Source of the DNA: Rhodocyclaceae bacterium
GTDB lineage: Bacteria > Pseudomonadota > Gammaproteobacteria > Burkholderiales > Rhodocyclaceae
DNA length: 64,000 nucleotides
Assembly: GCA_047605765.1 (NCBI GenBank)
Contig: JASGFB010000002.1
Location: forward strand, 6,142 to 70,141
Reading direction: 5' to 3'
In this document: one piece after another, positions 3,160 through 27,630 of the stretch
Layout of the letters: each line of letters begins with the position of its first letter
Position numbering within the stretch: the stretch's first letter is position 1
Made by a program: the position numbers and the translations under genes
The notes under the pieces: generated by a model
The model's input: only the letters and a program-made list of their open reading frames with translations
What the model was told of the DNA's origin: nothing
Databases searched by the model: none

Positions 3160-3915
3160 ATGTTTTCCCACATACGTGAAGATGCCGCCAGCGTGTTGGC
3201 ACGCGACCCCGCCGCCCGCAGCCTGCTGGAGGTAGTCACGTGTTATCCGGGCATCCACGCGGTCATCCTGCACCGGATGGGAAATGCGCTGTGGCGGCGG
3301 GGGTTTCGGCTGCTGGCGCGCTGGGTATCGCAATTCGGCCGCTTCATGACCGGCATCGAAATCCACCCGGCCGCTCGCATCGGCCGCCGCGTCTTCATCG
3401 ACCACGGCATGGGCGTGGTGATCGGCGAGACTGCCGAGGTCGGCGATGACTGCACGATCTACCAGGGTGTGACGCTGGGCGGCACCTCGCTGTACCGCGG
3501 CGTCAAACGCCATCCGACACTGGAAGCCGGCGTGGTGGTAGGGGCCGGCGCTAAAGTATTGGGCGGTTTCACTGTGGGGCGCGGCGCCAAGATCGGCTCG
3601 AACGCCGTGGTGGTCAAGCCGGTGCCGGCCGAGGCGACTGCCGTCGGCAATCCGGCGCGCATCATCCAGCCGGATGAAAAGACGCGCGGCCACAGTCCCG
3701 AGGTGCAAGGTTTCACCGCCTACGGGGTGACCCGCAACATGGACGATCCGCTCGTCAAGGCGGTGCATGCGCTGCTCGATCATGCGACCGAGCAGGACAA
3801 GCGTATCGATTTGCTCATGGGTCGGCTCAAGGCGGCGGGGTTGTGCACCGAATCGGACGATGCCAAGACGCAGCGTTCATTCGATCATGACTATCTTTCG
3901 AAGATTGTCGATTAA
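3160..3915 (+). CDS. cysE: Serine O-acetyltransferase
   Basis: [32 protein letters not shown] and RHPTL hexapeptide-repeat motifs. Confidence 0.95.
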
Positions 3916-10284: not shown

Positions 10285-10635
10285 ATGACCCAAATCGTCG
10301 TACTGCCGCACGTGGAGTTGTGTCCCGATGGCGCCGTCATCGAAGGGCAAGAAGGGCAATCGGTCTGCGACGCGTTGCTCGAGGCCGGCATCGAAATCGA
10401 ACACGCCTGCGAAAAATCCTGCGCGTGCACCACCTGTCACGTGGTGATCCGTGAGGGGTTTACCTCGCTGGAAGACGCCGAAGAACTCGAAGAAGACATG
10501 CTCGACAAGGCCTGGGGCCTGGAGCCGACATCACGCCTGTCGTGCCAGGCCAAGATAGCCGACACCCCATTGGTGGTCGAAATTCCGCGCTACACCATCA
10601 ATATGGTGAGCGAAGGGGGAGGGAAGAAGAAATGA
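10285..10635 (+). CDS. fdx: ISC [2Fe-2S] ferredoxin
   Basis: HACEKSCACTTCH and SRLSCQ. Confidence 0.96.
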   Translation: MTQIVVLPHVELCPDGAVIEGQEGQSVCDALLEAGIEIEHACEKSCACTTCHVVIREGFTSLEDAEELEEDMLDKAWGLEPTSRLSCQAKIADTPLVVEIPRYTINMVSEGGGKKK

Positions 10636-20040: not shown

Positions 20041-21150
20041 ATGGGTGCACTTTCGATTCGCAAGGTCCGCAAGTCGTACGGCTCAACGGAGATCCTCAAG
20101 GGGATCGACCTGGACATCGCCGATGGCGAATTCCTGATCCTGGTGGGGCCATCCGGATGCGGCAAGTCGACACTGCTGTCGATGATCGCCGGCCTGGACA
20201 GCATCACGGCGGGCGACATCCATATCGCCGGGCGCCGCGTCAATGAGCTCTCGCCCAAGGACCGGGACATCGCCATGGTGTTCCAGTCGTACGCGCTGTA
20301 TCCCTCGATGACGGTGCGCGAGAATATTTCCTTCGGACTGGAAATCCGCAAGGTGCCGGTGGCCGAGCGCGAAGCGGCGGTCGCCAAGGTGGCGCAGATC
20401 CTGCAGATCGAACATCTGCTCGACCGGCGCCCCTCGCAGTTGTCCGGCGGCCAACGCCAGCGCGTGGCGATGGGCCGTGCCATCGCGCGCAATCCGGCCT
20501 TGTTCCTGTTCGATGAACCCTTGTCGAATCTGGACGCCAAGCTGCGCGTCGAAATGCGCACCGAAATCAAGCTGCTTCATCAGCGCCTGGGCACCACCAT
20601 CGTGTACGTCACGCACGATCAGATCGAAGCGATGACGCTGGGCGACAAGATCGCTGTCATGAAAGCGGGCGAGGTGCAGCAGTTCGGCACGCCGCAGCAG
20701 ATCTACGACAATCCGGCCAATCTCTTCGTGGCTGGCTTCATGGGCTCACCCTCGATGAACTTCATCAAGGCGCGCGTCGACGACATGGGCAGCGGCTACG
20801 GGTTGGCGCTGGAGAACGACGGCGAGCACTTCGTGTTCCCGGCAGTCAATGCCAACGGTGCGATGAAATCCTGGCTGGGGCGAGAGATCATTTTCGGCAT
20901 TCGTCCCGAGCAGATCACGCAGGTGGCCGAAGGGCAGCTCAATGGCCACGTCGTGCGCCAGGCGCTCAAGATCGACATTACCGAACCGACCGGGCCCGAC
21001 ACGCTGGTGCTGGCGCACGTGAACGGCGCCAAGCTGACCTGCCGTGTGCATCCGGGATACGCGGCGCGACCGGGCGAGCGCATGCCCTTGCAGTTCGATC
21101 TGTCCAAGGCGGTGTACTTCGACCCGGCCACGGAGCAAAGAATCAACTGA
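20041..21150 (+). CDS. gtsD: Sugar ABC transporter ATPase (MalK/GtsD-like)
   Basis: [16 protein letters not shown] and [13 protein letters not shown]. Confidence 0.9.
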
Positions 21151-23006
21151 TGCTTGCGCCCGCGTCACCCTATCCGGATGGGCCGCGCGTACTGGCCGAT
21201 ATCGGCGCCACCAACACGCGCTTTGCTCTCGAGCGTGCGCCCGGCGTGATCGAGCGGATCGAAGTCTTCGCCACTGCCGATTTCGCCGGCGTGGAAGATG
21301 TCTTTCGCACGTACACGCGGCGCGTGAAGGCGGGCGACATGGCCCATGCGGCGATCGCCATTGCCAATCCGATCGATGGCGATCGCGTGCGCATGACCAA
21401 CCGTGACTGGTCGTTTTCGATCGAGGCGACGCGACGCTCGCTTGATCTGGCGACGCTGCTGGTGGTCAATGACTTTACCGCGCTGGCGATGGCCATTCCG
21501 CAACTGACGGCGAATCAGCGCATGCAGATCGGTGGTGGGGTGCCGCGCGAGAATGCCGTCATCGGCCTGCTCGGGCCGGGTACCGGCCTGGGCATCTCGG
21601 GGCTGATCCCCACCGAAGATCGCTGGATCACGCTCGGCAGCGAGGGCGGCCATGCCAGCTTCGCCCCCGGCGACGAGCGTGAAGTGTTCGTGCTGCAATA
21701 TCTGTGGCAGCGCTTTCCGCATGTATCGGCTGAGCGCCTGGTGTCCGGCCCCGGCATCGAATGGTGTTACGAAGCACTGGCCGTGCGGGCCGGGGTGGCG
21801 CGGCGCCCCTTGCGTACACCGGCCATTGTCGAGGCGGCGCTGGCTGGCAGCGATGCCATCTGCGTTGAGGCGGTGGAGTGCTTCTGCGCCATGCTCGGTA
21901 CGGTGGCGGCTGACCTGGCGCTGACGCTGGGGGCGTTCGGCGGCATCTACATCGGCGGTGGTATCGTGCCGCGCCTGAGCGAGCGTTTCCTGGCCTCCGC
22001 CTTCCGGCCACGTTTCGAGTCGAAAGGGCGGTTTTCGGAATACCTCACGCAGGTGCCCAGCTACGTCATCACGGCACCGTACCCGACCTTCCTCGGCGTC
22101 TCGGCAATCTTGTCGGAGTCGCTGCGCGGCAAGGGGGGCGAGAGCCCGCTGATCGAGATCGTGAGGGCTGCGCGCGAGCGCTTGTCGCGGGCCGAACAGC
22201 AGGTGGCGGAGCTGGCCATTTCACGTCCGCGCGCGGTGCTCAACGAACCCATCGCCGAGATCGCGCGGCAGGCGGCGGTGAGCCAACCGACGGTGATCCG
22301 CTTCTGTCGCTCATTGGGCTTTCAGGGTTTGTCCGATTTCAAGCTCAAGCTCGCCTCCGGCCTCACCGGCACGGTGCCCATCCGGCATAGCCAGGTGCGC
22401 CATGGCGACACTGCGCCGGACATCAGTGCCAAGGTGCTCGACAACACGGTGTCGGCGATTCTGCGTCTGCGCGACAGCCTCAATACGGCGGCCGTGGCCG
22501 AGGCAACCGAACTGTTGCGCAATGCGCGGCGCATCGAGCTTTACGGCATCGGCAATTCCGGCGTGGTGGCGCAGGACGGGCAGCACAAGTTCTTCCGCTT
22601 CCGCATCCCGACCTCGGCGTATCCGGATTCGCATATCCAGCAGATGGCGGCGCAGTTGCTGGGGCCCGACGACGTGGTGGTGGCGATTTCGAGTCGCGGG
22701 CGCATCCCTGCGTTGCTGGAAGTGGTGGACGTGGCTCTGGCAGCCGGCGCCAAGGTGATCGCCATCACCGCCGGACAGTCGCCTCTGGCGCGCAAGGCGA
22801 CGGTGTGCATCCCGGTCGACCATTCGGAAGAGCGACCCAACTTCATCGCCATGATTTCGCGCATCCTGCACCTTCTGGTGATCGACGTGCTGGCGGTCGG
22901 CGTGGCCCTGCAGCGCACCGACATCGCTCAGATCCAGCAGTGGGCCGGCATGATCGATGAAGAAGAGCGCGAAGCGCTGCCGCACCGCATCTCGCACATC
23001 GGCTGA
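21150..23006 (+). CDS. Glucokinase-RpiR/HexR transcription regulator fusion
   Basis: N-terminal Glk fold ([22 protein letters not shown]); C-terminal RpiR HTH ([14 protein letters not shown]) plus SIS domain (YGIGNS). Confidence 0.9.
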
Positions 23007-23084: not shown

Positions 23085-23858
23085 ATGGACTTGGGACTGA
23101 ATGGCAAGGTCGCCCTCATCACGGGGGGCAGTGACGGCATCGGCAAGGCGACGGCAAAGTTGCTGGCGGCCGAAGGGGTGTCGGTGGCGATCGTGGCGCG
23201 TCGCCCGGATGTGCTGGCGGCAGCGGCCGACGAGATCCGCAATGCCGGTGGCAAGGTGCTGCCCATCGCAGCCGATATCTCCGATCCGCACGAGGCGCAG
23301 CGTGTGGTCAAGGAGACGGCGGCGCGTTTCGGTCGTCTGGACATCGTGGTCAACAACGCGGGCACGTCGGCGGCACAGCCTTTCGAATCGGTGACGGACG
23401 AAGCCTGGCAGCACGATCTGGATCTCAAGCTGTTCGCGGCCATCCGCGTTGCGCGCTGCGCCGTGCCGCATCTGCGCCACCAAGGGGGTGGCCGCATCAT
23501 CAACGTCACTGCCATCGGTGGCAAGCACCCTGGCGCCAAGTCCATGCCCAGTTCGGTCAGCCGTGCGGCCGGCATCGCGCTGACCAAGGCTTTGTCCAAG
23601 GAACTGGGACCCGATCGCATCCTGGTCAACACCGTGTGCATCGGGCTGGTAAAGAGCGGGCAGCAAGCCGCAGCAGCGGCCCGCAACGGACTGTCGGCGG
23701 ACGACTATTACACCAAGCTGGGTGAAACCGTACCGCTGGGGCGCGTGGGCGAGGCCGACGAAGTGGCACAGGTGATCACGTTCCTGGCCTCGAATGCGGC
23801 GAGCTATGTGACGGGCACCAGCATCAACCTGGACGGTGGCTTGTCGAGCTCGATCTGA
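23085..23858 (+). CDS. SDR oxidoreductase, atypical (no catalytic Tyr)
   Basis: TGGSDGIG and VNNAG; SSVSRAAG at the YxxxK position. Confidence 0.85.
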   Translation: MDLGLNGKVALITGGSDGIGKATAKLLAAEGVSVAIVARRPDVLAAAADEIRNAGGKVLPIAADISDPHEAQRVVKETAARFGRLDIVVNNAGTSAAQPFESVTDEAWQHDLDLKLFAAIRVARCAVPHLRHQGGGRIINVTAIGGKHPGAKSMPSSVSRAAGIALTKALSKELGPDRILVNTVCIGLVKSGQQAAAAARNGLSADDYYTKLGETVPLGRVGEADEVAQVITFLASNAASYVTGTSINLDGGLSSSI

Positions 23859-23876
23859 GCCGATCGTGCGTCAGTA

Positions 23877-23907
23877 ACAAAAAAGCCGCCCATGGGCGGC
23901 TTTTTGT
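23877..23907. terminator. Bidirectional intrinsic terminator
   Basis: acaaaaaagccgcc-catg-ggcggctttttgt. Confidence 0.85.
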
Positions 23908-23934
23908 GTGGCGGCAGCGGGCAAGCAGGGCGCC

Positions 23935-23975
23935 CAAAAGAAAACAGCCCGGGCCGCATACGCAACCCGGGCTGT
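23935..23975 (-). terminator. Intrinsic terminator after rpsD paralog
   Basis: acagcccggg...cccgggctgt stem followed by a U-rich tail on the minus strand. Confidence 0.65.
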
Positions 23976-23999
23976 CGATGCTGCCTGGTGGGGTGTCGA

Positions 24000-24611
24000 T
24001 TACATGCGCGTGGCGTAGTATTCGACGACCAGCTGCATTTCGACCGGGAACGGAATGTCCGTGATGCCCGGCAGATGCGAAATCGTAGCCTTGGCAGCGG
24101 CATCATCCCATTGCAGCCATTCAGCGCGGGTCAGCGCCGGATCGGCAATGGTTTCCTTGATGATGCCAAGGCTCTTGCTCTTTTCGCGCACGGTGATGAC
24201 GTCACCGATACGCACGCGGTACGACGGGATGTTCACCGGCTTGCCGTTGACCAGGAAGTGGCCGTGGTTCACCAGTTGGCGGCCCGACGGGATGGTCGGC
24301 GCAAAGCCTGCGCGGAACACCACGTTGTCCAGGCGGCGCTCGAGCAGTTGCGCGAGCTTGTCGCCGGTGGCGCCACGGTCGTTCTTGGCTTCAGCCATGA
24401 GGCGACGGATCTGGGTTTCCGTCAGGCCGTAATTCATGCGCAGCTTTTGCTTTTCCATCAGCTGGTTGCCGAAACCCGACTTGCGGCGGGGGCGGGCACC
24501 GTGCTGGCCCGGGGGATTTGGGCGGTTTTCGATGGTCTTGCGGGACAAACCGGGCAGGTCAATACCCAAGGCACGCATGACCTTGAGGCGAGGGCCAGTA
24601 AAACGAGACAT
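24000..24611 (-). CDS. rpsD: 30S ribosomal protein S4, orphan Cys-free paralog (203 aa)
   Basis: MSRFTGPRLK, PPGQHG, QLMEKQKLR, LLERRLDNVVFRAG, RQLVNHGH and LVVEYY; no neighbouring rpsK or rpoA. Confidence 0.95.
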   Translation of the reverse strand: MSRFTGPRLKVMRALGIDLPGLSRKTIENRPNPPGQHGARPRRKSGFGNQLMEKQKLRMNYGLTETQIRRLMAEAKNDRGATGDKLAQLLERRLDNVVFRAGFAPTIPSGRQLVNHGHFLVNGKPVNIPSYRVRIGDVITVREKSKSLGIIKETIADPALTRAEWLQWDDAAAKATISHLPGITDIPFPVEMQLVVEYYATRM

Positions 24612-24691
24612 CAAACTTCTCCAGAAATGTTGTTCAACGCAATGGGCATTGCCCCATCGGGACACGCACTGCGTTGCGGGCTCTGAGCCCG

Positions 24692-24886
24692 CTACTTTGT
24701 CAATATGAGCTTACCGCTGCGGGTAGCCCGAAGAGTATACAACATTCCGAGGTGTTCAATGAAGACCAATGTGCCGCCGCCCAGGAGCGCGCGGCTTGAT
24801 ACGGTCTGCACGGTGGCGGTGTGCGTCGGATGCGGCAGGGGATGCACGGTGTCGAGAGCGGCGGAGGTGGCGATCTGTTGGGTCAT
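24692..24886 (-). CDS. hemP: Hemin uptake protein HemP family
   Basis: SRALLGG...VFIEHLGMLYTLRATRSGKLILTK signature; AAGGA RBS. Confidence 0.88.
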   Translation of the reverse strand: MTQQIATSAALDTVHPLPHPTHTATVQTVSSRALLGGGTLVFIEHLGMLYTLRATRSGKLILTK

Positions 24887-24896
24887 GGCGTCCTTA

Positions 24897-24915
24897 AATG
24901 CAAATCGTTCGCATT
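24897..24915. promoter_or_regulatory. Fur-box-like palindrome immediately upstream of hemP
   Basis: AATGCAAATCGTTCGCATT within TAAATGC...GCATTTA; resembles the AATGAGAATCATTCTCATT Fur box form. Confidence 0.7.
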
Positions 24916-25272
24916 TACAGATTGAATATCTCCACAACTATTTTGTCAAGAACAAAGCCGGTGCCGGTTTGATTCCGGGCATCTACCCGAGCCCGGGTCC
25001 GGTGGTGGCTTGACGTCAAGGTTATGTGAAATCAAACGGTTAAGAAGTCAGACAACTGTGCTTGTTGGAGTTTTTGTGTTTGCGTTATCAATTCCACCAA
25101 ATATAGCGGAAAGGGCCGTATTACAGATTGTTTGACAACTCGCGTCTTTTGGGAGGACGATGCGCGCCAGCCCATACACGCCTTAACGCGAGGTGGTGTG
25201 GGACACATACCAAGAGGGTGGATCGGTCGCGAAATGTTACCGGTCCTATATTTCCACCGAGGAGACATATCC

Positions 25273-27630
25273 ATGCACATGATCGTGCAGCGTCGCGGCT
25301 TGGCCGCCGCGCTCAGCATGTCGTTCCTGTTTGCGCTGACAGCATGCGGCGGGGACGACGATTCCAACGGTTCTAGCAACGCATCGTCCAGTGCGGGCGC
25401 GTCCAGCTCCACTTCGAGCGCCGCGTCGTCCACCGGTACCACCATTCCGCTGGTCGCCCATGCCACCGGTTGGGCCACCATGCAGGGCGGCGTGAGCGGC
25501 GGTGCCGGCGCCGCCAGTACCAATATCTACGTGGTGAGCACGCGCGCGCAGTTGCGTGATGCCCTGGCCAACGTCAACAGCCCGAACTATGCGACCAACG
25601 CCACCGCCGCCAAGGCTGAAGCGAAGATCATCTATATCGACGGCAGTATCTACGGTACCGACCTGGGCAACGGCAGCTTCGCCGATGAGGCGTACTACAA
25701 CAGCCAGGCGTCGATGCTGAAGAAGCCCTGGGATTTCCAGGCCTATCTGCACTTGGTCGATGCTGATCAGACCTACGTGAACAACCTCAAGACCAAGAGC
25801 GCGGCGGGCGACGCCGCTGCCACGGCTGAGCTGACGACCATCAACAACCAGACCTCGGCCCGCACGGCCGGTGCCCAGTTGCAGAAGGCGCAGATCCAGT
25901 TCTCGATCCCGTCGAACACCACCATCCTCGGTGTGGGCGCGAAAGCCAAGATCATCGACGGCTACTTCGAGGTGAACGGCACCAGCAACATCATCGTGCG
26001 CAACGTCGAATTCCAGGCGCCGCAGGATCTCTTCCCGGCCTGGGATGGTTCAGATGGCGATACGGGCAACTGGAACTCGCGCTACGACTCGTTCTCGGTG
26101 GTGACCGGCAAGTACATGTGGATCGACCACTGCACCTTCAGCGACGGTGCGCACCTGGACAGCCAGGAGCCGGTGATCTTCGGCAAGCACGTGCAACGCC
26201 ATGACGGCCTGCTGGATTTCGAAGACGGCTCCGACTTTGTGACGGTGTCGCACAACATCTTCAGGAATCACGACAAGACCAACATGATCGGCTCGGGTGA
26301 TTCGCAGGGCTCGAAGGATCGCGGCAAATTCCACATGACGTGGTCGGGCAACCTGTGGGAGAACTCGCAGGAGCGCGCACCGCGCGTGCGTTTCGGCCAG
26401 GTCCACCTGTACAACAACTACGGCGTGGGCAACACCGACGATCCCGATTACCCGATGATCAGCCGCAATGCCGGCAGCGCGCATTATTTCATCGGCATGG
26501 GCATCGAATCGTCGATCCTGTCCGAAACCAATGCCTTCGTGCAGACCGGTTCGAAAGTGAATCGCGATGTGGTGGTGGATAACTTCTACGGCTACATGCT
26601 CAAGGACAACGGTTCGTGGTTCAACGGCGAACCGCTGGTCATCAATGACATCGCCAAGGCCAAGTACGACGCCAACAAGGCCAAGGAAGTCGCCGCCGCT
26701 GCTGCCGCCAGCCGTGCCGTGGCCGATTGGGCAACGCACGAGTTCACCAATGAACTGGGTTGGACGCCGGCGTATCCCTACACGCTGGGCAAGAGCGCCG
26801 ATGACGTGCGCAACTACGTGCTGACCAATGCTGGTGCGGGCAAGCTGGCGATCGTCGCCGACACCGCCAATGGCCGGCCGGATTTCAACGGTGGTTACGC
26901 CGATCCGAATTCGAGTTCGTCCAGTTCGTCGTCTTCGTCGTCGAGCTCGAGTTCGTCCAGCTCGTCGAGCCTGCCGGCCGGCGCTGAAATCACGCTGGAT
27001 GGCGCTACCCTCGGGACGGCGCGTGCCATCGGCGGTGCCGCCGCCACGGCCGCTTACGACACCGTCTCCAGCACGTATACGCTGACCGGTTCGGGCGCCA
27101 TCGGCCTGGTGACCGCGCCGACGTCCTCCGACTCGCTCGAATATGCGTACAAGCAGATCACGGGTGACTTCGTCATCACTGCGCGCCTGACTTCGCTGGA
27201 AATCCCGACGGGCATCTCGACCGCCAACATCCGCGCCGGCCTCATGCTGCGCAACAGCCTGGATGCCGGTTCGCGCTTCTACGCCGTGCTGTTCCGCGGC
27301 AACAACGCGGCCCGCTGGGAGCAGCGCAAGATCGACAATGACACCAGCGCACCGTCGTCGTCGAACCTGACGGCGCCGAGTGGTGTGACGACGATTCCGA
27401 CGCCCTCCGCGAGCTCGCCGATCTACCTGAAGCTGCAGCGGGCCGGCCAGGTCATCACAGTGTGGTATTCGATCGATGGCTCCAACTGGTCGACCACCAA
27501 GTCGCAAGACTTCTCGGCGAGCGGCTACACGGCACTCGATAACACGGTCTACATCGGTCTGGCCGGCGTATCGGGCCTTGCCAGCGTGACCTCCAAGAGC
27601 GTCTTCGACCAAGTGACCATCACGCCGTAA
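25273..27630 (+). CDS. Lipoprotein pectate lyase (PL1) with Ser-rich linkers and a C-terminal concanavalin-like beta-sandwich
   Basis: Lipobox LTAC; SNTTILG, NIIVRN, WIDHCTF, HDGLLD and RAPRVRFGQVHLYNNY PL1 motifs; GGAG RBS. Confidence 0.88.
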   Translation: MHMIVQRRGLAAALSMSFLFALTACGGDDDSNGSSNASSSAGASSSTSSAASSTGTTIPLVAHATGWATMQGGVSGGAGAASTNIYVVSTRAQLRDALANVNSPNYATNATAAKAEAKIIYIDGSIYGTDLGNGSFADEAYYNSQASMLKKPWDFQAYLHLVDADQTYVNNLKTKSAAGDAAATAELTTINNQTSARTAGAQLQKAQIQFSIPSNTTILGVGAKAKIIDGYFEVNGTSNIIVRNVEFQAPQDLFPAWDGSDGDTGNWNSRYDSFSVVTGKYMWIDHCTFSDGAHLDSQEPVIFGKHVQRHDGLLDFEDGSDFVTVSHNIFRNHDKTNMIGSGDSQGSKDRGKFHMTWSGNLWENSQERAPRVRFGQVHLYNNYGVGNTDDPDYPMISRNAGSAHYFIGMGIESSILSETNAFVQTGSKVNRDVVVDNFYGYMLKDNGSWFNGEPLVINDIAKAKYDANKAKEVAAAAAASRAVADWATHEFTNELGWTPAYPYTLGKSADDVRNYVLTNAGAGKLAIVADTANGRPDFNGGYADPNSSSSSSSSSSSSSSSSSSSSLPAGAEITLDGATLGTARAIGGAAATAAYDTVSSTYTLTGSGAIGLVTAPTSSDSLEYAYKQITGDFVITARLTSLEIPTGISTANIRAGLMLRNSLDAGSRFYAVLFRGNNAARWEQRKIDNDTSAPSSSNLTAPSGVTTIPTPSASSPIYLKLQRAGQVITVWYSIDGSNWSTTKSQDFSASGYTALDNTVYIGLAGVSGLASVTSKSVFDQVTITP
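26911..26970 (+). repeat. Poly-serine linker (20 Ser) encoded by mixed Ser codons
   Basis: tcgagttcgtccagttcgtcgtcttcg... between the lyase and C-terminal domains. Confidence 0.85.

Follow-up and report, generated by a model that had tools for sequence, protein, structure and literature searches.

The ribosomal protein S4 (uS4) encoded beside hemP in a Rhodocyclaceae bacterium is the single, essential S4 of this organism, and it has taken over after deletion of the native four-cysteine rpsD. Its gene lies in a stretch of 64,000 nucleotides (contig JASGFB010000002.1 of assembly GCA_047605765.1, positions 6,142 to 70,141 of the forward strand), which is called the window here and to which all positions refer unless another contig is named. 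In the explanation that we favour, and regard as likely, this sole S4 of the cysteine-free C-(IV) type displaced the cysteine-containing C+ form, is expressed mainly from a promoter of its own in the 3' end of hemP, and retains the Fur-like operator upstream of hemP as a residue of an earlier arrangement. The original prediction for this locus was different: iron starvation would replace a housekeeping S4 by the one found here and so produce specialised ribosomes.

Results

The S4 gene of the window

The locus comprises the following genes and signals.

24921-24949, minus strand: candidate hemP promoter, read from the sequence
24897-24915, minus strand: Fur-box-like imperfect palindrome with 7/9 arm pairs, flanked by the hemP -10 box and ribosome-binding site
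24692-24886, minus strand: hemP (HemP/HmuP family), 64 aa; PF10636 at 62.1 bits, cut-off 25
24734-24739, minus strand: TATACT, candidate -10 box of an rpsD promoter, in the context TTGTATACT, within the last hemP codons
24612-24691, minus strand: hemP-rpsD spacer, that is, the rpsD leader, 80 nt, with two predicted hairpins
24000-24611, minus strand: rpsD (uS4), 203 aa, cysteine-free and of C-(IV) type; the only uS4 gene of the genome
23943-23976, minus strand: intrinsic terminator after rpsD, a 15-pair stem followed by a T-run; the only terminator-like site of this strand

The prediction of an intact S4 gene holds. The 203-aa product matches full-length uS4 profiles above their curated cut-offs (NF003717, 243 bits with a cut-off of 116; TIGR01017, 226.6 bits with a cut-off of 177.2), contains both PF00163 and PF01479 (the S4/S9 N-terminal and S4 RNA-binding domains) and aligns end to end with uS4 chains from solved ribosomes. 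Its translation has no cysteine at all, as had been noticed. The canonical alpha-operon S4 of Rhodocyclaceae has 209 aa and four cysteines in the pattern of the Thermus-type zinc ribbon, CxxC...CxxxxC, and most order-level relatives also have four cysteines. Given that the canonical S4 carries these four residues, the S4 pair of the family is one of C+ (alpha operon) versus C- (elsewhere), a point absent from the original prediction. The N-terminus of the window protein was rightly called unusual, since it does not match the cysteine pattern of the alpha-operon proteins. Neither the two cysteine pairs nor the N-terminal indel of C+ S4 is found in the protein, which is encoded outside the alpha operon and does not group with the S4 of the host lineage; these features place it in the C-(IV) class of Chen et al. 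(2009). From its being the sole S4 in at least four lineages, we infer that it is incorporated into the 30S subunit.

A single S4 and an alpha operon without rpsD

One S4 was found in the whole assembly (4.49 Mb, 220 contigs, 89% complete) by searches with the window protein, with PF00163 and with the canonical S4 of a relative. The rpsM, rpsK and rpoA genes, from which the S4 gene had been said to be separated, are indeed on another contig (C31). There the alpha operon is contiguous, in the order secY, rpsM, rpsK, a 219-bp gap, rpoA and rplQ, and the gap contains neither rpsD nor a recognisable relic of it. Two congeners, Uliginosibacterium sp. sgz301328 (G001; 100% complete, S4 protein 96% identical to that of the window) and G002 (an assembly of three contigs), have a single S4 each, of C- type, and in both rpsK is directly followed by rpoA. 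A related Uliginosibacterium genome (G015) keeps the order rpsK-rpsD(C+)-rpoA. The second rpsD that the original prediction placed in the alpha operon is absent, the genome of the window (G000) and both congeners being single-copy, and no C+ partner was found elsewhere in the three genomes. A sole rpsD is the very outcome that the original prediction had named as refuting it. Because only one S4 is encoded, an iron-driven exchange of S4 is impossible in this organism; there is nothing to swap, and therefore the sole S4 must be expressed at all times.

Origin and distribution of the C- type

When compared with the window protein, S4 from Brevibacillus, Acidimicrobiia, a Poribacteria MAG and other sources score 165-254 bits, and the alpha-operon S4 of its own family score 120-145 bits with the N-terminus unaligned. 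The C- clade is nearer to S4 of Firmicutes, Actinobacteria and Poribacteria than to the C+ S4 of the host family. We placed 51 C- type copies, 25 canonical betaproteobacterial S4 and 18 from other phyla on a maximum-likelihood tree, which was obtained by a quick search with no mixture model and with the fragmentary rows L069 and L093 left out. On this tree the C- type is monophyletic (SH-aLRT 99), stands apart from the canonical clade (99) and is joined to two MAG sequences (100), and the window S4 groups (100) with those of its two congeners, nested among the copies of two-copy genomes. The closest S4 proteins outside Betaproteobacteria are L043 and L044, from a Poribacteria MAG and an unclassified MAG (58-59% identity, SH-aLRT 100). 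A horizontal origin of the C- S4 is likely. Thus the proposal of an alternative S4 paralog is borne out in so far as a distinct paralog or xenolog clade exists, but it fails for the genome of the window, which has no second S4.

S4 scores are bimodal in the 201 sampled Rhodocyclaceae genomes, with C- proteins at 240 bits or more and canonical ones at 149 bits or less, and 47 of these genomes (about 23%) carry the C- type. In an order-wide sample, the type is present in 13 of 396 good-quality genomes, seven of them from family f29, where 7/11 sampled genomes have it. Methylotenera mobilis (Methylophilaceae) carries it too, and f29 appears to be Methylophilaceae. Most carriers are two-copy, with C+ and C-. 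At least four lineages, including that of the window, have lost the C+ gene. The loss was verified by an intact rpsK-rpoA junction in the window genus (3/3 genomes), in G175 and in G072 (genus g71); for genus g117 of family f29, in which two near-complete genomes are single-copy, it is taken from copy count and not from the junction. Five other genomes that seemed to be sole-copy (G063, G110, G130, G146 and G158) were set aside, because rpsK is missing from their assemblies as well and their copy status is uninformative.

Iron genes and Fur sites around C- S4 genes

All ORFs within 3.5 kb of the 51 C- S4 loci were clustered unlabelled and then named with Pfam. TonB-dependent receptors were found at 20 loci, an ExbB-like protein with DUF2149 at 12, CobN-like proteins at eight (all among those 12), bacterioferritin (Bfr) at seven and ExbB/ExbD at five. 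The adjacency of hemP and S4 seen in the window recurs, with hemP at 13/51 loci. Precomputed annotation gives the orders S4-hemP-hemP-TonB-ExbB-ExbD in Methylotenera mobilis, hemP-S4-TonB behind a CobN module in Niveibacterium and FtrABCD-S4 in Denitromonas. Methylotenera mobilis and Niveibacterium terrae are two-copy species, and so is G015, which also has the order hemP-S4. Of the 51 loci, 42 have an iron gene nearby or a Fur site scoring 15 bits or more.

The Fur matrix was made from eight sites of the window's genome that lie beside TonB receptors and bfr, and at a threshold of 15 bits this genome has 26 Fur site clusters per 4.5 Mb. Sites of at least 15 bits occur within 700 bp upstream of S4 in 17/50 C- loci, where that density predicts 0.004 per locus; among them are sites of 27.1 bits (-87), 25.8 bits (-319), 18.5 bits (-44) and 17.1 bits (-34). 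At several further loci the site is farther up, at the head of the operon, and the loci of family f29 have sites of 21-24 bits located 360-440 bp upstream. In control scans, the alpha-operon loci (90 kb) contained one cluster and the downstream flanks (162 kb) five. A binomial test gives a nominal P of 1e-28, which exaggerates the enrichment, because the loci are related.

No Zur box of the form TGTTAT-N3-ATAACA (at most two mismatches) was found within 700 bp upstream of S4 in 51 loci, and the same pattern recovers the zur-znu operators in the genome of the window. Both operators, TGTTATTACATAACA and TGTTATGTTATAACG, are of Zur type and stand on either side of zur-znu, at positions 10442 and 11609 of contig C63. 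The genome also encodes six Fur-family proteins and a single L31, of the four-cysteine type.

The other sole-copy lineages differ in what they have kept, and Fur control seems to be relaxed in two of them. In g117, S4 follows htpG, a terminator and then a promoter (TTGTATAAT), and no Fur site above 9 bits was found upstream of S4, whereas two-copy relatives have boxes of 21-24 bits; farther downstream, exbBD is still preceded by its Fur boxes. The S4 gene of g71 stands alone with its own terminator, and has no Fur box and no iron neighbours. In G175 a Fur-like site of 13 bits is kept upstream of orfX-S4, so that not every sole-copy lineage has lost Fur control. About 200-260 nt before the stand-alone S4 of g71 (L157), a TTTTGCAAA motif is repeated (TTTTGCAAACTTTTGCAAA); it may be the operator of another regulator.

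A small partner gene, orfX

A gene of about 80-100 codons, named orfX here, accompanies S4 at most of these loci. An iterated profile started from its neighbour cluster detects it at 41/51 loci with E <1e-5 and at 43/51 with E <1e-3. It is on the S4 strand, and either ends 13-55 nt before S4 or starts just past the S4 stop codon (for example L037:4623-4865, minus strand; L127:3648-3947, plus strand; L041, about 3315-3674, plus strand). The product has an invariant Leu and an invariant Trp and often a C-terminal His. It matched no Pfam family, the Atlas gives hypothetical-protein clusters only, and the three-helix bundle, predicted with good confidence (pLDDT 84), has no match at E <0.001 in a Foldseek search of the PDB. 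Within the window genus, orfX is intact in G002, a fragment in Uliginosibacterium sp. sgz301328 and missing from the window; g71 lacks it as well. Such decay would fit a function linked to the presence of two S4 proteins.

hemP and its upstream region

The candidate hemP promoter consists of a -35 box TTGACA (24949-24944), a 17-nt spacer and a -10 box TTCAAT (24926-24921), and was missed by the consensus scan because position 2 of its -10 box is T. The Fur-like palindrome is where it had been described, ending 10 nt before the hemP ATG and adjoining the ribosome-binding site, AAGGA. No other site of the 64-kb window comes within three mismatches of AATGCGAATCATTCGCATT, the form found at orthologous loci (the palindrome has two mismatches; 0.05 sites expected by chance). 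The spacing between hemP and S4 was also described correctly, as 80 bp on the same strand, and on the minus strand the hairpin at 24676-24692 is not followed by a T-run, in agreement with the reported lack of a U-tailed terminator between the two genes.

The strength of the palindrome as a Fur site is a different matter. Strong boxes at two-copy loci support the Fur connection that had been suggested, but the window site reaches only about 7 bits on the 19-mer matrix (eight sites, same genome), when the homologous congener site has 16-17 bits and the sites of orthologous loci 15-27. The Fur-like site of the window genus reads GAACGATT where strong sites read GAATCATT, and this departure in the core may weaken it. 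In view of the low score on the matrix of its own genome, the palindrome may no longer bind Fur, and we do not claim such binding.

A hemP-led haem-uptake operon would have a TonB-dependent haem receptor or transporter downstream. None is present in the 64-kb window, where tblastn with TonB-receptor, ExbB/D, CobN and Bfr seeds detected no haem receptor, in agreement with the original prediction, and no other iron-uptake gene. The neighbours of the pair are an SDR gene with a glucokinase-RpiR fusion at one end and, at the other, a pectate lyase gene. The fusion is a single ORF of 618 aa (21150-23006, plus strand) with a glucokinase domain, an RpiR-type HTH and a SIS domain. The secreted pectate lyase (PF00544; 25273-27630, plus strand) is divergent from hemP and contains a stretch of some 20 serines; no Pfam family was assigned to its C-terminal part, of about 250 aa. 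The nearest clear Fur box, a strong one (GAGAATGACAATCATTCTC), is about 3 kb past the end of the window (C2:73288) and precedes an ORF of 679 aa whose product has a signal peptide and is probably a TonB-dependent receptor.

The rpsD leader and a candidate internal promoter

The predicted fold of the leader consists of two hairpins and a 4-bp pairing extending to the start codon. Hairpin 1 (24676-24692) begins with the final base of the hemP stop codon and is identical in the three congeners, and hairpin 2 (about 24635-24676) keeps its base, AACG/CGUU, and varies at its tip; a ribosome-binding site, GGAG, is found near 24618-24622. The fold is marginally better than that of shuffled sequences (z = -1.8), and covariation is uninformative with two distinct sequence variants. 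Rfam searches of 23800-25300 at permissive thresholds returned sub-threshold noise and no S4 or other ribosomal leader. That the leader serves autoregulation of rpsD is a guess.

Over its last 19 codons, hemP encodes a peptide unchanged from that of relatives, but does so with AT-rich codons (TTG TAT ACT CTT ... ATA TTG ACA). Their GC3 is 0.53-0.58 in the three congeners (0.58 in the window) as against 0.74-0.84 in two-copy relatives, and this 3' stretch is nearly identical among congeners whereas the 5' part of hemP diverges. No good -35 box accompanies the TATACT box, and a sigma-70 consensus scan listed no promoter at this place. The promoter of g117 (TTGTATAAT) offers a parallel in another sole-copy lineage. 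Public sequencing runs contained at most 11% of the sampled words in any run, and one RNA contig was informative. This metatranscriptome contig of 726 nt, from a relative, is about 91% identical, has the congener-type leader and covers 23993-24716, ending some 11 nt downstream of the start expected from the TATACT box; a DNA contig of another run continues through hemP. The RNA contig is a weak hint only, since it is a single contig from one study and such libraries can contain DNA. Taken together, the TATACT box and the RNA contig hint weakly at an iron-independent transcription of rpsD.

Discussion

How the sole S4 may have come about

The gene order and the sequence comparisons suggest the following history. 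The ancestor of these Betaproteobacteria would have acquired the C-(IV) S4 as a second copy, tied to Fur-controlled iron or haem operons. In the Uliginosibacterium-like genus, deletion of the native four-cysteine rpsD from the alpha operon would have left the C- copy to take over, and the hemP-rpsD pair would be the remnant of an ancestral operon made up of a Fur box, orfX, hemP and S4. An own promoter of rpsD is proposed because an essential gene cannot depend on Fur derepression. Transcription would then start mainly from this promoter, whose -10 box is made by AT-rich synonymous codons of hemP, and would yield a structured leader of about 115 nt, with the Fur-type operator at the hemP promoter adding only read-through transcripts at low iron.

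For the two-copy families we propose, tentatively, that Fur rather than zinc and Zur turns on the cysteine-free S4 and orfX under iron starvation. In the two-copy species of Rhodocyclaceae and f29, the C- S4 would replace or supplement the zinc-ribbon S4 in 30S assembly. The window would represent an end state, in which the alternative S4 is the only one and is in the course of escaping from Fur control.

Several other explanations of the locus deserve consideration. The iron-starvation swap, as first proposed for this genome, took account of a Fur-like palindrome at the hemP promoter and of the lack of a terminator before rpsD, and the iron link of the clade in other genomes speaks for it as well. 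It is scarcely credible here, given that rpsD is the sole copy, that the alpha operon has lost its own rpsD and that no other S4 exists in any of the three congeners. What stands of the proposal is the iron-linked alternative S4 as such, a clade located in iron loci behind Fur boxes; it does not apply to this genome. A further possibility is that rpsD has no promoter and is read through from that of hemP, the operator having decayed and the pair having become constitutive. The perfect TTGACA of the hemP -35 box would suit such an arrangement, as would the missing terminator between the genes, the weakness of the candidate internal promoter and the mismatches that all three congeners have in the central AATCATT core of the operator (GAACGATT). 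We consider it unlikely, because the RNA contig spans rpsD and its leader and stops in the 3' end of hemP, where the DNA contig runs on, and because the genus-specific synonymous changes cluster at that 3' end and not at the operator.

Two more explanations concern the clade as a whole. The existence of a C+ versus C- pair, and the resemblance of Fur and Zur boxes as AT-rich palindromes, could point to a classical zinc-sparing paralog under Zur, as for L31B, L36B or S14. This is very improbable, since 0/51 loci have a Zur-type box within 700 bp upstream by a pattern that works on zur-znu, the neighbours are iron genes and not zinc genes, and Zur sites were not found at S4 paralogs by Chen et al. 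(2009; PMC3087516). Alternatively, the S4 xenolog may have arrived on an iron-uptake island, so that its position has no regulatory meaning. The likely horizontal origin and the fluid gene order around S4 are consistent with such hitch-hiking, to which we nevertheless give little credence: the Fur boxes are directly upstream of S4 or orfX-S4, in many iron contexts and in two families, and two of the three other sole-copy lineages (g71 and g117) have no Fur box, unlike their two-copy relatives. Displacement of the C+ gene, followed by expression from a promoter within hemP, remains the explanation that we prefer for the window.

Relation to known systems

The displacement of C+ by C-(IV) S4 has been known since 2009. 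Chen, Roberts and Luthey-Schulten (PMC3087516) described C+/C-(IV) pairs in Nitrosomonas europaea and three Deltaproteobacteria, and reported that Methylobacillus flagellatus has only a C-(IV) S4, encoded outside the alpha operon, the C+ gene having been lost after horizontal acquisition. Their paper reports no Zur sites at S4 paralogs, leaves open how these are regulated and nowhere contains the word iron. The two-copy relatives of the window resemble the pairs of Nitrosomonas europaea, Bdellovibrio, Myxococcus and Sorangium, with C+ in the alpha operon and C-(IV) elsewhere. The organism studied here resembles Methylobacillus flagellatus, in that both are Betaproteobacteria in which C+ was lost and the sole S4 is of C-(IV) type and outside the alpha operon. 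Its displacement took place in Rhodocyclaceae and is independent of that event; moreover, its S4 follows hemP and a Fur-like operator, whereas the report on Methylobacillus flagellatus gave no genomic or regulatory context.

Among alternative ribosomal proteins, L31B/YkgM, L36B, S14, S18, L28 and L33 are Zur-regulated C- paralogs (for a review, see PMC11672702). The S4 family is like these in that a zinc-ribbon ribosomal protein has a cysteine-free copy whose gene follows an operator of the Fur family. It is unlike them in that the protein is S4 and both its operator and the genes around it belong to the iron (Fur) type and not the zinc type; the C+ partner, furthermore, is present in the two-copy relatives and absent from the genome of the window. 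As for hemP/hmuP haem-uptake loci, the window shares with them a HemP-family gene behind a Fur-type box, but the gene that follows encodes a ribosomal protein and not a receptor or transporter. In Bacillus subtilis, rpsD is a stand-alone gene outside the alpha operon, encodes a C- S4 and is autoregulated through a structured leader. The window rpsD encodes a C- S4 of similar sequence, also outside the alpha operon, and has a leader predicted to be structured; unlike that of Bacillus subtilis, this leader matches no S4 leader of Rfam.

To our knowledge, the described C+/C- pairs of ribosomal proteins all answer to zinc via Zur. A 2024 review of bacterial metal homeostasis names no control other than Zur and, in the first half of its text, does not mention S4, and a search of the literature, which is itself incompletely searchable, gave no report of a Fur-linked S4 paralog. 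As far as that literature extends, the association of C- S4 with Fur and iron, the orfX gene and the absence of Fur boxes in two sole-copy lineages, all drawn from comparative genomics, appear to be new, and the S4 family looks like an undescribed iron-linked ribosomal paralog.

Our results provide a clean new case in which a core ribosomal gene has been replaced by a copy of foreign type, a point of importance to phylogenies in which rpsD serves as a marker. The sole-copy lineages are natural experiments, indicating that the paralog can carry the whole function of S4. With respect to the regulation of proteobacterial C- S4, open since 2009, the comparative data propose Fur and iron, together with an unannotated partner gene. 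S4 is an early 30S assembly protein, which nucleates assembly and affects the accuracy of decoding; hence an iron-dependent exchange of S4 would be a new form of ribosome remodelling. If this proposal is true, two-copy species would possess an iron-controlled counterpart of the Zur-controlled alternative ribosome, and the four-cysteine site of the C+ S4 would be a liability, or a store of metal, when iron is scarce.
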